From Malacoraja senta (Eukaryota), in the NCBI GenBank assembly GCA_038087875.1, contig CM075996.1, positions 2,234,001 through 2,298,000 of the forward strand: a stretch of 64,000 bases of DNA. Direction: 5' to 3'. Each line of letters begins with the position of its first letter. The stretch's first letter is position 1. The notes under the pieces were generated by a model. It made no database searches, was not told the origin of the DNA, and saw nothing but the letters and a program-made list of their open reading frames with translations. A program made the translations under genes and the position numbers. Below are positions 43,681 to 50,406 of this stretch, one piece after another.

Positions 43681-44304
43681 CTCCCATATGGCAGATATCT
43701 GGAATACTATGTATGTGCTATGACAGAGATAGGCACTTGTCATTCCTCCAAACACCCCAATACCTCTGTGAGCCCAGGGGCTGGCTGGGAAGGCAACAAA
43801 GATTGGTGATGGTACATGAGAGCGGAAGCAAGGGTCAGGTGGGGGTCTGATGAAAGGAGATGGGTGGACGGAGAGGGAAAGATATAATAAAATAAACAAT
43901 GTCGCAAAGAAGCTTTCTGCCTCAACAATTCCAGAAAAGTCAGGAGTTGTGTACACCAGGGACTTTACCACGTCATTATGTGCATGATCACTTGGACCCG
44001 CTGACAAGCAAAAGATCATCAGCCTCACAGCCCCACTGACAAGCACAGAACATGTTCCCTGCTTTATTACTGACCTCCCAGTGAGGTCACCTCTTTGGGG
44101 AACCAGTGACCTGCAGTTATGTCAACATCATTAAGCCGGAGCAGTTCAGCCATTTCCCAGAGGGAACATCTCTCGAAACTTGGGCTGGAATATGAAAAAC
44201 ATATCTCCCCCATCTTTATGTGATTTTGATAAACATAATTGACCTCAGGGCAAGACACAATAAAATGGCAGATGCTGAAAATCTGAATTAAAAACAGAAA
44301 ATCA

Positions 44305-44655
44305 AGAGGCATAAATGCTGCTCCAAGACAGATAATTGTGAAATTTCTTGATATCTCTTCAGTGGAAACTATACTGAAGAAGATTGTTCATGGTGAAAAT
44401 TTGATATATCGTGGGGAAAAGATCCGATTTTTCCGTGATTATCCTCCAGAGATTGTCCAGAGAATGAACCTGTTTACACCGACAAGAAACATATTGAGGG
44501 GTATTTCTAAAGTCAGATATGGTATTGTTTTTTCTGCAAAAATGAAAATTACATATAAGGAAATTGAGCGCTCATTTACGGACCCAGAAAAAGCATTTAA
44601 ATATGCAGAAGATATCATGAGGAAAGCATCCGAAACTTCAGAAGAAGACGACTAA
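44305..44655 (+). CDS. L1 ORF1 C-terminal portion (truncated)
   Basis: PRQIIVKFL...YRGEKIRFFRDYPPEIVQR...YGIVFSAKMKITY...FTDPEKA. Confidence 0.88.
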   Translation, partial: RGINAAPRQIIVKFLDISSVETILKKIVHGENLIYRGEKIRFFRDYPPEIVQRMNLFTPTRNILRGISKVRYGIVFSAKMKITYKEIERSFTDPEKAFKYAEDIMRKASETSEEDD

Positions 44656-45615
44656 AGGAATGAACATGGAACTTTTTAATTTCTAAGATGGAGCTGGAAC
44701 CGGCGGATTTCTCAGACAGTTACTGAGCTTATCTGTCTGGAATGTATTGGACAATATTGTTTAACCTTGAATGAAAAGCTCTCGTACAAAGAACGAGATA
44801 ACCTGAGTATTTAACTATGATATGCTAATTACAATTAACTAACTAACTTTAACAAAACTAATGTGAGTGTGTGTAGTAAATATGAATATTCATGAATAAA
44901 CCATTGCTTATAAATTGTAATTAACCAAAATGTCTATAACATTACTAACATTTTCTTTCTTTCTTTTTGAGTGGGAACGCAACATAAACTTGGAAAAAAG
45001 CCAGGAATGAGGTTAACCCCTCGGTACCTGCTTGTAGGGTAGCTGGCTAGATAAATTGGTACAGTACAAATACTTATAAAAATTAGAATAGGTTGTGGTT
45101 TATATTTGGATTTGGGGTTTAATTACATTAATGTTTTCTTTTTTTTTAACTCTTTAATATTTTATCTTTGCATATTTTTGTTATTATTATTATTATTATT
45201 ACTAATTTTTTTTTTTTAATTAATTTTTTGGGGGGCATTTTACTAACGCTAGTTTGATAAAGTTATACAAGAATAAACGAGACGGTTTGTAGGTTTTTTT
45301 TTTAAATTATTTTTTACGAGGTGTTAATAAGGGATTGGGGCTCACTGTAAAATAACATCAATGGAAGTCTATAATTCTTTCGCCACCTTAGGTGGCTATT
45401 TGTCTTTAAGGTACCTGCTTTTAGATACCTTAATTTCACTTTTTTTTTTAAATCACTTAATTAATTGTAAATCACAACTTTTCTTGCTTTATCTAAGGCA
45501 CTTTTGGAGATGGAGATGTAATGTAAACTTAAAAATTTGGAATGACCACCCAACGTCCAGAACACGGAGGTATTTGTTTGCACCATATGTTTCAAGAACA
45601 TCACTTTGATATACA

Positions 45616-48600
45616 ATGCAGGACGATAGGCAAATAAAGAATGGAGGAATCACATTCTGTAGTTGGAATATAAGGGGTGCCAATGAACCAATAAAGAGGG
45701 GTAAAATTTTTGCTCACCTAAAATCTTTGAAAAGCGACATAATCTACTTGCAAGAAACTCACATGAAACAGGAAACACAAATGAGATTAAAGGCGAAGTG
45801 GATAGGCCAAACATATTATTCGTCATTAACTTCTAAATCTAGAGGTACGGCTATTCTTATTCGAAAAGGTATACCGTTCAAATTAAAGAATACTATATCA
45901 GATAAAGAGGGAAGGTATATTATAGTTTCGGGAGAAATTTATGCTACCCCAATAACTATGGTAAATATTTACGCTCCGAATTTTGATAACCCTCAATTTT
46001 TTGAGAAAATTATAGATATAATACTGGAGTTTAATTATCAAAATGTCATAATAGGAGGGGATTTCAATTGTGTTTTAGATCCTTACTTAGACAAATCAGC
46101 AAAACAAAGAAGGAGTAATACAAAATCTAAGACTAGTGAATTTCTAAATACATATATAAAAAATACTAACATAACAGATGTATGGAGATCTGCTAACCCA
46201 GCAGGAAGGGAATACTCGTTTTACTCTTCGGTACATAAAACATACTCAAGAATTGATTATTTTTTAGTGGATAGGAAATTAATGCCATATATAATTAACC
46301 CAACTTACCATATTAGTAGTATTTCTGATCACTCTCCATTGACTTTTTTAGTAAAATTTGAAGGAATGCCAGGAAAGAATTTTTTTTGGAGGTTTAACAC
46401 ATATATATTAAATGACCTACAGGGTTATCAATATTTGAAACAACAAATGATATCATTTCTTGAGATAAATGATACACCAGGTACCTCACCTTCTTTAATA
46501 TGGGAAACTTTTAAAGCATTTATTAGAGGAATTATAATTTCATATGAAATTTTTCAAAATAAGAAGAATAAAACTGAACAGATGCTGTTAGAACAAGAAA
46601 TAAGACAGTTAGAGTTAGATAATGCTAAAGATCCCACTATAGATAAACATAATAAGATAATACTACTGAAATTTAAACTTAACCGAATTCTCTCGGCAAG
46701 AGTAATAAGATTATTCCAAATTACAAAACAGGAACATTTTGAGTTTGGTGACAAACCACATAAGCTGTTGGCGCGTCAATTGAAAAAACAGGAAAAGGAA
46801 AATACTATAAATAAAATTAAATCTGAGAATGGTGAATTACTAACACTACCTAAAGATATCAATAAAAGATTTGTTCAATTTTATCAGAATTTATACACAT
46901 CAAAAACCAAAACAGAAGATAGTAAAATTACAAATTTTTTAGATAAATGTAATCTACCAAAACTTGACCTTTTGGAACAAGAAGAACTAGGAGCGCAAAT
47001 TACAATCGAAGAAATAGGTGAAACAATAAAATTGCTGAAAAATGGTAAGACACCGGGACCAGATGGTTTTAGTAATGAATTTTATAAAAAGTTTCATGAG
47101 ATAACGACCCCCTATCTATTTAATTTATATACTCACGTTTTTAAAGAAAATAAATTACCTGAAACATTAGCAGAATCAACTATTACGCTTATTCCAAAGA
47201 AAGATAAAGATCTAGAGGAACCGTGTTCATATAGAGCTATATCACTTTTAAATACCGACCAGAAAATTCTAGCAAAGACCTTAGCTAGAAGACTAAGCAA
47301 ATATATTAGTAAATTGATAAACCCTGATCAAACGGGGTTTATACCCAAAAGATATTCATTTAATAATTTGAGACGCCTGTTTAATATAATGTACTCACAT
47401 AAAAAGGAAGAAAAAGACTTAGCAATTATTTCTTTGGACGCAGAGAAAGCATTTGATCAGGTAGAATGGCAGTATTTATACATAGTATTACAAAAATTTA
47501 ATATGGGAGAGAATTTTATTGCATGGGTGAAATTATTATATGATAAACCGATGGCAAGAATATTAACTAACAGCATGTTATCTCAAAAATTTCAATTATC
47601 AAAATTACCCCTGCTATTTGCCCTTATGATAGAACCTCTGGCTGAAAGTATAAGAAGCCATCCGAATATTCAGGGTTATAATACTAGGGACTCAAATAAT
47701 AAAATTTCATTGTATGCAGACGATATTTTGTTATATATAACAAATTCACATACGAGTATACCAAATTTATTAAATTTAATAGAGGAATTTGGGTCCTTTT
47801 CAGGATATAGAATAAATTGGAACAAAAGTGAAATTATGACGTTAAAACCTCAAGAATCCACACACTTATTGAAATTCCCCTTTAAAATAGCAACAGAAAA
47901 ATTCAAATATCTGGGTATACAGATTACTAGAAAACATAAAGCTTTATTCAATGCTAATTTTATACCCTTAATAAATAAACTTAATATAATGATAAAATTT
48001 TGGAAAACACTCCCTTTATCATTAATAGGCAGAATAAATGCTATTAAAATGAGCTTCTTACCACAGTTATTATACTTATTTCAATCTATACCAGTATATA
48101 TACCAAAATATTTCTTCTCTAAACTGAATGCTAATATTACTAATTTTGTTTGGGATTACAAATCACATAGAATTAAAAAAGAACACTTATGTAAACCAAA
48201 AGATGTCGGGGGACTTTCACTCCCTAATTTTTTGTATTACTATTGGGCAATACATATTAAGAATATAATTTACTGGTTGGATAGTTCAACTCAACAGACA
48301 GAATGGATAAAAATGGAGAAAGAGGATTGTTATCCTTGTAATATAGGAACAATCCTCTTCTCCCCGAAAAAAATGAACAATACAATATATAAGAAAAACC
48401 CAATTATACAAGATACAATAAGAATATGGAAACAAATAAAACTATCCTTAAAATTAAGAAACCTATCATTGTTAACACCGATAGCGAATAATCCTTTATT
48501 TAAACCATCTATGATGGATAAAATATATAATCAATGGGAAAGTTTAGGAATTAAAAGGATCGGGGATATGTATGAAATGGGAGATTTATTATCATTTCAA

Positions 48601-49401
48601 CATTTACAATTAAAATTTAAACTGAAAAACACTCATTATTTCAAATATTTTCAGATTTGTAATTTTTTGAAGACATACATACAGGGATATCAAAAAATAA
48701 CTCCTGATTTACTAGAAGAAGTAATGAATATAAAAGCTGATACACAAAAATTAATAGCATATTTATATAATAGTATCTTAAATATAGATTTACCTGTGAC
48801 CGAGGTAATTAGAGAAGAGTGGGAACGGGAATTATTGATAAAAATTACGAAGGCTACATGGGAAAAGTATTTGACATACATTCACAAGTGTTCGATTAAC
48901 GCAAGACATAATCTAATCCAATTTAAAATTTTACATAGATTATATTACTCAAAAATAAGATTAAATAAATTTTATCCAAATATATCACCCATTTGCGATA
49001 AATGTTTAATCCAAGAAGCAACTATAACACACTCTTTTGTTTCTTGTATAAAACTTCATGGATTTTGGAGTGATATTTTCGAAATATTTACAAAATTATT
49101 TAAGACAAAAATGGAACCCAATAATGAATTGATTATATTTGGGGTAATGGAAGACGGGAACAAATTGAGCTCATCTCAAAAGTCAATTTTTAATTATGGT
49201 TTAATAATAGCAAAAAAATTAATATTGAAATTTTGGAAAAATACACCAATACCAACGCTCAAAATGTGGATTGCAAGTATGTTGGATACCGCACATCTTG
49301 AGGAAATGCGATTCCTCCTAATAGATAAATTTGACCAATTCATAACGAGTTGGTCTCCATTTGTCGTCTTTTTGGAAACGTATGGTGCAAAACAGGTGTA
49401 A
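45616..49401 (+). CDS. L1 ORF2 (APE endonuclease, RT, CCHC), open 1261 aa but missing one RT motif
   Basis: SWNIRG, LQETH, GGDFN, SRIDY, SDHSP; PGPDG, YRAISLLN, DAEKAFD, YADD, YLGI; CDKC-x8-H-x4-C. Confidence 0.96.
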   Translation: MQDDRQIKNGGITFCSWNIRGANEPIKRGKIFAHLKSLKSDIIYLQETHMKQETQMRLKAKWIGQTYYSSLTSKSRGTAILIRKGIPFKLKNTISDKEGRYIIVSGEIYATPITMVNIYAPNFDNPQFFEKIIDIILEFNYQNVIIGGDFNCVLDPYLDKSAKQRRSNTKSKTSEFLNTYIKNTNITDVWRSANPAGREYSFYSSVHKTYSRIDYFLVDRKLMPYIINPTYHISSISDHSPLTFLVKFEGMPGKNFFWRFNTYILNDLQGYQYLKQQMISFLEINDTPGTSPSLIWETFKAFIRGIIISYEIFQNKKNKTEQMLLEQEIRQLELDNAKDPTIDKHNKIILLKFKLNRILSARVIRLFQITKQEHFEFGDKPHKLLARQLKKQEKENTINKIKSENGELLTLPKDINKRFVQFYQNLYTSKTKTEDSKITNFLDKCNLPKLDLLEQEELGAQITIEEIGETIKLLKNGKTPGPDGFSNEFYKKFHEITTPYLFNLYTHVFKENKLPETLAESTITLIPKKDKDLEEPCSYRAISLLNTDQKILAKTLARRLSKYISKLINPDQTGFIPKRYSFNNLRRLFNIMYSHKKEEKDLAIISLDAEKAFDQVEWQYLYIVLQKFNMGENFIAWVKLLYDKPMARILTNSMLSQKFQLSKLPLLFALMIEPLAESIRSHPNIQGYNTRDSNNKISLYADDILLYITNSHTSIPNLLNLIEEFGSFSGYRINWNKSEIMTLKPQESTHLLKFPFKIATEKFKYLGIQITRKHKALFNANFIPLINKLNIMIKFWKTLPLSLIGRINAIKMSFLPQLLYLFQSIPVYIPKYFFSKLNANITNFVWDYKSHRIKKEHLCKPKDVGGLSLPNFLYYYWAIHIKNIIYWLDSSTQQTEWIKMEKEDCYPCNIGTILFSPKKMNNTIYKKNPIIQDTIRIWKQIKLSLKLRNLSLLTPIANNPLFKPSMMDKIYNQWESLGIKRIGDMYEMGDLLSFQHLQLKFKLKNTHYFKYFQICNFLKTYIQGYQKITPDLLEEVMNIKADTQKLIAYLYNSILNIDLPVTEVIREEWERELLIKITKATWEKYLTYIHKCSINARHNLIQFKILHRLYYSKIRLNKFYPNISPICDKCLIQEATITHSFVSCIKLHGFWSDIFEIFTKLFKTKMEPNNELIIFGVMEDGNKLSSSQKSIFNYGLIIAKKLILKFWKNTPIPTLKMWIASMLDTAHLEEMRFLLIDKFDQFITSWSPFVVFLETYGAKQV

Positions 49402-49407
49402 AAGCTA

Positions 49408-49946
49408 ATAGATACATAGATACATAGAAAATAGGTGCAGGAGTAGGCCATTCGGCCCTTCGAGCCTGCACCGCCATTCAATATGATCATGGCTGATCAT
49501 CCAAATCAGTATCCCGTACCTGCCTTCTCTCCATACCCCCTGATCCCTTTAGCCACAAGGGCCACATCTAACTCCCTCTTAAATATAGCCAATGAACTGG
49601 CGTCAACTACCCTCTGTGGCAGAGAGTTCCAGAGATTCACCACTCTCTGTGTGAAAAAGTTTTTCCTCATCTCGGTCTTAAAGGATTTCCCCCTTATCCT
49701 TAAGCTGTGACCCCTTGTCCTGGACTTCCCCAACATCGGGAACAATCTTCCTGCATCTAGCCTGTCCAACCCCATAAGAATTTTGTACGTTTCTATAAGA
49801 TCCCCTCTCAATCTCCTAAATTCTAGCGAGTATAAGCCAAGTCTATCCAGTCTTTCTTCATATGAAAGTCCTGACATCCCAGGAATCAGTCTGGTGAACC
49901 TTCTCTGCACTCCCTCTATGGCTATAATGTCCTTCCTCAGATTTGG
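49408..49946 (-). mobile_element. Young CR1 3' fragment nested antisense in the L1 3' UTR
   Basis: VQRRFTRLIPGMSGLSYEERLDRLGLYSLEFRRLRGDLIETYKI..; (TCTATGTA)n tail on minus strand. Confidence 0.95.
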
Positions 49947-50406
49947 ATGGTCAAGATTATAAATGATCTCCTATTTTCTTTTCTTCTCTTCTTTTCATTT
50001 ATTCTCTTTCTTCTATTTTCTATGTCTCAACTTTCTTATTTCATTCTTTATTTTTATTTTTCACACACTATATATCTCACATTTTTCTATTTTTCATTAT
50101 CTAACTTTTTTCTTTTTCTTCTTTATTTCAAAAAAATTTAAAAAATAAGAAGCTGTACATAAAAGGTATTATGAAAATATGATTGTATACAATTGTACTT
50201 ACTTCTAATAAAATAAAAATAAAAAAAATAAAAAAACAGAAAATGCTGGAAACAGCCAGTAATTCTGGCCACAGCTATGGGGAGGGAATGAGGGTTCAGT
50301 TGATGCTGAGTGTTAGCAGCATCTTGTTTTTGTGTCTCCTCGGGGTGACTTTGTCTGTACCAGACTTTGTACTCTTTTGTTATTTGTTCTTAGGACCTGG
50401 CAAGAG

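Follow-up and report, generated by a model that had tools for sequence, protein, structure and literature searches.

A conserved, co-evolving complementarity between spacer and 3' end predicts a three-helix RNA clasp around ORF2 in a clade of long-spacer L1 elements

How the second open reading frame (ORF2) of an L1 retrotransposon is translated behind an AUG-rich spacer of up to 1 kb is a standing question, and the candidate RNA structure described here addresses it. The analyzed window comprises 64,000 nucleotides (nt) of Malacoraja senta DNA (GenBank assembly GCA_038087875.1, contig CM075996.1, positions 2,234,001 to 2,298,000 of the forward strand) and holds an L1 copy with an open ORF2. 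A sequence-only reading of this window had noticed a 22-nt inverted repeat bracketing ORF2 and had proposed that it loops the start of ORF2 to its stop. Comparison across L1 families points to a real, conserved, and co-evolving long-range complementarity around ORF2, which is larger and wider than that reading saw, and whose function we infer.

The two arms of the repeat (45577-45598 and 49370-49391) pair as RNA at 21 of 22 positions (19 Watson-Crick, 2 G-U, and 1 A-G mismatch) and end 17 nt short of the ORF2 ATG and 7 nt short of the stop, as first described. They form the best 22-nt inverted match within 44340-50240. The shuffle test suggested in the sequence-only reading gave a divided answer. 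The match length alone is ordinary, as at least 19/22 was reached somewhere in 85 of 185 block-wise resamples of the whole 6280-nt element, and in 61 of 185 without low-complexity matches. The position of the arms is not expected by chance: when the 60 nt before the ATG were compared with the 60 nt around the stop, none of 600 shuffles rose above 16/22. Chance was therefore rejected for the lone 22-mer at its position, not element-wide. The arms were unchanged in 19 of 20 fetched copies of the same L1 family (family A), and the 20th was without its 3' part.

Seven further families (B-H) were traced via sister L1 fragments beside the fetched family A copies. Their ORF2s are 65-87% identical to that of family A, with an agreement at fourfold-degenerate sites of 0.28-0.48 for C-H and 0.71 for B. 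In all eight families, complementarity links the ~110 nt leading up to the ATG with a stretch of ~120 nt that begins at the C-terminal WxPF codon; this 3' partner covers the end of ORF2 plus ~60-90 nt at the beginning of the 3' untranslated region (UTR). The complementarity forms three predicted helices (40-70 bp), with 5' strands at ATG-46 to -18 (P1), ATG-75 to -46 (P2), and ATG-120 to -90 (P3); we refer to the whole as the clasp. Complementarity does bracket ORF2, and the 22-nt repeat is confirmed, but its arms are only a part of the predicted structure, of which the two outer helices reach the 3' UTR. Families C and H, with strong P2 and P3 helices, retain just a 5-6 bp core of P1. Throughout this clade, the long-range helices end 10-27 nt short of the AUG. 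The calculated duplex energies range from -37 to -65 kcal/mol (eight families, 10 representatives); eight of the 10 representatives beat all 300 dinucleotide shuffles, while one was equalled by a single shuffle and one by eight.

The register of P1 is fixed: in 12 of 13 rows, ATG-33 to -36 faces WxPF+35 or +38. The distance from the WxPF codon to the downstream stop is 30, 39, 48, or 57 nt, and the P1 3' strand invariably occupies the final codons or a place no more than ~10 nt from the stop. Because the stop falls before, inside, or after this strand, coding does not hold it in place, and protein-coding constraint was rejected as the cause of the 3' arm. An out-of-frame upstream ORF running from 45545 across the ORF2 start was also considered and rejected, its ATG being absent in family B. 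Farther downstream, most families show predicted pairing between a purine-rich run (45640-45651, ORF2 codons 9-12) and the 3' part; the partner of the run may be the pyrimidine tract, or the pairing may be generic.

We judged the co-evolution of the two strands from matrices of own- versus other-family pairing and from visible double changes. For all eight family spacer ends, the 3' end of the same family ranked first of 47; among the eight relatives, it ranked first for seven, and none of 20,000 permutations reached the mean. Double changes in P1 included U-A to G-C, C-G to G-U, and C-G to U-A. P2 pairs a CACCC-rich with a GGGTG-rich strand in most families and consists of an unrelated but complementary pair in family D, while P3 varies between families in length and sequence with its pairing kept. 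Sister families retain the pairing with compensatory changes; with the arms unchanged in other copies and the group signal of distant L1s described below, the complementarity withstood the sequence-based refuting conditions set in the sequence-only reading. Silent sites are near saturation in six of the eight families (C-H), and the predicted pairing is nonetheless kept. That reading had also taken two G-U-compatible mismatches as a sign of an RNA-level duplex; two such pairs are too few alone, but the argument holds over the eight families, which show 43 G-U against 17 A-C under strand-neutral scoring (p = 0.004 against 0.53 in shuffles). This excess favors a duplex of the sense-strand RNA. 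Judged by these comparisons, the duplex is very probably a selected RNA structure in the eight-family clade. The evolutionary evidence, not folding, carries this claim; in two-part folds with 300 nt of context, seven of the eight families held at least one helix above 0.9 probability.

We then considered distant L1s. A metagenome scan gave 80 loci, 37 of them with both ORF2 ends and flanks; with three near-duplicates dropped, 32 long-spacer and two short-spacer elements were left, the latter presumably rodent-like, judging from their proteins. Four distant families of the Malacoraja senta genome brought the set to 36 long-spacer L1s, while a fifth, L189, was left out as a sister of L193 and proved 5'-truncated. 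Relatives without DNA from protein searches served as queries only, and scans of genome and viral contigs yielded no element with both ends usable. The median amino-acid identity among the distant elements was 42%. With a narrow 3' window, four of 32 elements ranked first both ways (p = 0.046), a weak signal. A wide 3' window, picked post hoc on the same data after the narrow-window results had been viewed, gave a mean z of 0.96 (0/20,000 permutations; n = 36), and strand-neutral scoring gave a mean z of 1.29. Nine shifted or re-oriented control windows, including direct-repeat and parallel-complement controls, were null (p 0.06-0.99). In a grid of 63 window pairs, the peak lay at ORF2 start x ORF2 end (Z 7.1, antiparallel tail), with a Z of 9.4 when simple repeats were masked (n = 34). 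The two short-spacer L1s showed no complementarity in this comparison (ranks 27 and 29 of 36). The complementarity is accordingly present in distant L1s as a group signal; the clasp appears firm for the eight-family clade, and its generality to long-spacer L1s is likely, not proven.

Two observations on this set stand apart. The metagenome element L102 is ~76-87% identical in protein to an old family of the Malacoraja senta genome (L187-L189 and L193), against the median of 42% given above, and horizontal transfer is possible; the paired arms of L102 and L193 are homologous, yet altered on both sides. L1-like reverse transcriptase (RT) matches (L181-L183, 45-47% identity) lie within viral contigs of 186-211 kb, in which no long open ORF2 and no usable ends were found.

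These data bear on the possibility that the complementarity has no function and reflects an ancestral chance repeat, copied between the ends in retrotransposition, or a match in base composition. Elements of this kind often contain a 19/22 match at some place, and simple repeats underlie some of the distant-family matches. The pairing persists, however, despite near-saturated silent sites; own-family arms fit best, G-U pairs are in excess, repeat masking raises the signal, and the direct-repeat and parallel-complement controls are null. We regard this explanation as already largely refuted and barely credible.

Windows anchored at the ORF1 stop gave a Z of -1.4 to 0.6, against 7.6 at the ORF2 start (n = 22-25), and pairing near the ORF1 stop was rejected in this anchored-window test. 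This result concerns a second alternative, in which the fold-back shields the RNA from nonsense-mediated decay by bringing the poly(A) tail and poly(A)-binding protein (PABP) nearer to the ORF1 stop, which is followed by ~5 kb of sequence. According to the available text of PMC2689704, decay in human cells is suppressed when the poly(A) tail is folded close to a premature stop. Here the arm lies 300-900 nt away from the ORF1 stop, at the ORF2 start, and no complementarity occurs near that stop, which makes decay shielding highly unlikely.

Complementarity, a fixed register, co-evolution, a G-U bias, and a place at the ORF2 start, not the ORF1 stop, are observed. Reasoning from these, we give an even chance to the reading that the long-range three-helix duplex brings the poly(A) end to the ORF2 AUG and licenses ORF2 translation on full-length RNA only. 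Long spacers hold 7-22 AUGs (26 rows). A ribosome leaving ORF1 would have to scan 350-1000 nt, pass these AUGs, and then open a duplex of 40-65 kcal/mol, which seems hardly workable; because the AUG-rich spacer and the strong duplex would block scanning, ORF2 would need another mode of entry. The 5' arm tracks the ORF2 start, and no more than a few hundred nt separate its 3' partner from the poly(A) tail. P2 and P3, situated beyond the stop and out of reach of elongating ribosomes, could hold the PABP-bearing poly(A) end close to the AUG. P1 would be opened by every ribosome that terminates, which would free 20-45 nt before the AUG and set the rate of re-entry. RNAs ended at poly(A) signals inside ORF2 (13 AATAAA occur inside one family A ORF2) would lose the 3' arm, and no truncated ORF2 protein would be made. 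The proposed loop control of ORF2 is in this sense partly supported, with the role in translation inferred. Among the three functions that the sequence-only reading had suggested (initiation after the long spacer, ribosome recycling, and limitation of the ORF2 protein to one round through cis preference), cis preference appears the least supported, because the poly(A) tail would be ~300 nt away from the stop whether or not the loop forms.

The poly(A) tether was proposed by analogy with plant viruses. In tombusviruses and barley yellow dwarf virus, a 3' cap-independent translation enhancer (3'-CITE) pairs with the 5' UTR, and delivery of initiation factors from 3' to 5' is established, as the available part of PMC5893793 describes. 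The L1 clasp resembles these systems in that pairing over ~4 kb connects a 3' region with sequence upstream of a start codon; the viral pairing has been proposed to deliver initiation factors, check message completeness, and recycle ribosomes. In the viruses, a short kissing loop contacts the 5' end of an RNA that lacks a cap, and a factor-binding element is present; the L1 clasp, by contrast, is predicted to comprise three helices (40-70 bp) and to engage an internal position in a bicistronic, A-rich-tailed RNA. The L1 partner is not a 5' UTR but lies internally, ~2 kb from the 5' end of the element. Ty1 and flaviviruses cyclize their genomes by long-range pairing, and the Min Jou interaction of MS2 is a pairing opened by ribosomes. 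Ty1 and flavivirus cyclization joins both RNA ends for replication, while the L1 clasp encloses the second cistron only.

Several results weigh against the licensing of ORF2 by the clasp. No initiation-factor-binding element was found in the 3' region, the Rfam search covering the spacer only. Family F retains no helix under local competition, and family A retains P1 but not P2. When the whole 4.4-kb stretch is folded, the minimum-energy structure does not contain P1; imposing P1 and P2 raises the energy by 4.5 of 845 kcal/mol, which is within the error of such folds. The sense strand is energetically better in seven of the 10 representatives and not in the other three. Singly, just 10 of the 36 distant elements rank first and 14 reach the top three; L091, the closest outside relative, is without clear signal, and the post hoc choice of the wide 3' window belongs here as well. 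Finally, in several distant families the pairing spans the AUG and the first codons, an arrangement that would suit repression equally well.

Repression of ORF2 would mean that the duplex blocks a scanning 40S subunit or hides the AUG, keeping the ORF2 protein scarce or limited to one round. The -37 to -65 kcal/mol duplex directly upstream of the AUG and the overlap with the AUG or first codons in distant families are consistent with such a role, as is the inhibition of human L1 by long structured spacers reported in the available part of PMC4072516. However, a spacer with 7-22 AUGs would already block scanning, a local hairpin would suffice, and the helices of the eight-family clade stop 10-27 nt before the AUG. 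We consider repression improbable.

A further alternative is that the duplex acts after translation, either by compacting the RNA for ribonucleoprotein assembly or by shaping reverse transcription and copy ends. Breaks or 5' ends within the 5' arm (ATG-112 to -22) numbered 1 against 5.8 expected (p = 0.02) in a post hoc sample of 182 copies from families A, C, D, and G, with slightly different entry conditions between samples and with 14 copies below an identity filter counted in. Family A ends pile up on both sides of the arm and skip the arm itself, with 10 against 2.1 expected just outside and 10 against 3.4 just inside; the outer cluster was not repeated in C, D, and G (2, 0, and 0 seen against 0.9, 1.0, and 0.2 expected). 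In two DNA runs, contig depth, a weak measure, drops 3-5 fold immediately upstream of where ORF2 starts, and one twin-primed copy (L274) and one deletion copy (L259) lose just the arm region. With its post hoc origin, small numbers, and missing outer cluster, we treat the copy-end pattern as a lead only. A gap would also be expected as a by-product, as a complementary DNA ending in the arm could fold onto its own copy of the 3' arm, and a packaging role leaves unexplained why the arm tracks the ORF2 start. Action after translation is unlikely in our estimate, though it deserves mention ahead of repression. Two weak tests were negative: one narrow pattern for ORF2-less derivatives joined across the stem had no matches, and the joints listed from DNA contigs included none that connected arm to arm. 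Among the family A copies L225-L314 (around 45450-45710), three independent copies end at the same base, ATG-148. The idea that three copies share one truncation point was wrong; they are members of a subfamily with a 30-nt insert, and their ends are independent. Further twin-primed inversions occur in L321 and L400, and the deletion in L259 is internal.

The features of the window copy are listed in Table 1. This copy is 5'-truncated inside ORF1, and its ORF2 is eight codons shorter than those of whole copies, with an in-frame loss in the RT region near 47600. A reversed fragment of another long interspersed nuclear element (LINE) removed ~10 nt of the 3' UTR and shifted the rest by 535 nt; the fragment had no Pfam match, and we take it to be a CR1-like C-terminus. 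The window copy is dead, with its outer helices P2 and P3 split by the insertion. Whatever the pairing does, selection acted in the active lineage, not in this copy.

Table 1. Parts of the family A L1 copy and of the predicted clasp, in window coordinates
Feature	Position	Strand	Remark
3' remnant of L1 ORF1	44287..44655	+	Homology to full copies begins 1329 nt before the ORF2 ATG
ORF1 stop of the window copy	44653-44655	+	
ORF1-ORF2 spacer	44656..45615	+	Long, AT-rich, about 960 nt
Two predicted local spacer hairpins	45382..45433	+	Upstream of the clasp; from folds; similarly placed hairpins in families A-G
P3 (outer helix), 5' strand	45506..45517	+	6 bp in family A, 8-13 bp in others
P2 (middle helix), 5' strand	45543..45568	+	
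P1 (inner helix), 5' strand	45570..45598	+	Includes the 22-nt arm 45577-45598
L1 ORF2 (endonuclease and RT)	45616..49401	+	Open, 1261 aa
P1, 3' strand	49370..49399	+	Last codons of ORF2; includes the 22-nt arm 49370-49391
First nucleotides of 3' UTR	49402..49409	+	Following ~10 nt of the P2 3' strand gone from the window copy
Inserted fragment of another LINE	49410..49944	-	Splits the 3' arm
Displaced 3' strands	49945..49971	+	P2 49945-49953, P3 49966-49971
Remaining 3' UTR	49972..50240	+	Pyrimidine tract, then AATAAA repeats and A-rich tail

Whole copies of family A have a 5' UTR of ~150 nt, an ORF1 of 341 aa, a spacer of 952-975 nt (with 18-19 ATGs in two sister copies), an ORF2 of ~1269 aa, and a 3' UTR of ~300 nt. 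The ORF2 domains match Pfam Exo_endo_phos and RVT_1, and ORF1 of a sister copy gives a weak Transposase_22 match. The element fits a long-spacer vertebrate L1, with ORF1 followed by an ORF2 carrying an apurinic endonuclease and RT, and shows the hallmarks of that type (a short 5' UTR, the 250-1000 nt spacer class, and AATAAA with an A-rich tail; ranges from the available part of PMC5381506). Family A is very young, as 40 of 40 scored matches were identical over 45450-45750 (1760 candidates). A search for expression listed no RNA source that contains the element. Near-identical copies occur in at least three L1 families of this 1.9-Gb genome (A, C, and D), and many open 1271-codon frames were present among the 150 family C matches listed, a picture of recent, parallel L1 activity. 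A subfamily, A2 (L262 and L275-L311), carries a 30-nt spacer insert 159 nt before the ATG, outside the paired region. The spacer hairpins have CCACC/GGTGG-type stems, found at the same place in families B-G, and may be a partner module of the clasp; a short CGGAAG motif lies near them, about 200-250 nt before the ORF2 ATG.

Earlier accounts of ORF2 translation looked elsewhere for the start signal. For mammalian L1, termination-reinitiation (Alisch 2006) and an IRES (internal ribosome entry site; Li 2006) have been put forward, as described in the available parts of PMC5381506, PMC4072516, and PMC5972666; these models address the same problem, initiation behind ORF1, in elements with no or a short spacer, and as described there involve no 3' end. 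PMC5972666, in its available part, mentions a possible loop between the ORF1 stop and the ORF2 start, not between the ORF2 start and the ORF2 end. Boissinot and Sookdeo 2016 (PMC5381506) predicted a cripavirus-like IRES next to ORF2 in long-spacer vertebrate L1s, a prediction that points, as the clasp does, to the end of the spacer, no more than ~10 nt away from the ORF2 start. As far as the available text goes, their spacers were folded alone and showed no common pattern, IRES predictors were relied on, the word 'inverted' is absent from the main text, and the supplement holds spacer sequences without ORF2 ends. Our Rfam search of the family A spacer gave nothing at the gathering score, and no IRES family, such as a Dicistrovirus-type intergenic IRES, was among the two matches at E <= 1 (44600-45750). 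An RNA structure is required for ORF2 translation in the non-LTR (long terminal repeat) element SART1 (Kojima 2005, per the available part of PMC5972666), where it is local and downstream of an overlapping stop-start, with no long spacer and no 3' UTR partner. We found no description of L1 spacer pairing with the L1 3' end in the literature covered, outside of which most subscription journals lie, in agreement with the sequence-only reading, which knew of no such L1 structure.

In the available part of Yang et al. 2014 (PMC4072516), the long spacer is inhibitory yet co-adapted, and its persistence, left unexplained, is the hardest point to reconcile; the elements were synthesized as ORF1 plus spacer and ORF2 blocks, with no cognate 3' UTR named in that part. 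A duplex between spacer and 3' UTR predicts that the two must match in L1 assays. If the proposed licensing is true, the clasp would amount to a closed-loop translation device located internally in an RNA of cellular type. For the non-mammalian vertebrate long-spacer L1s, probably the ancestral L1 form, we offer a tentative extension that may well prove wrong: the clasp would close the second cistron into a loop, place the poly(A) end at the internal AUG, and replace reinitiation, such that only full-length RNA makes the endonuclease-RT. Clasp and spacer would then have been lost jointly in the short-spacer L1s of mammals, which would explain why long spacers persist despite inhibition in assays built without their own 3' UTR.

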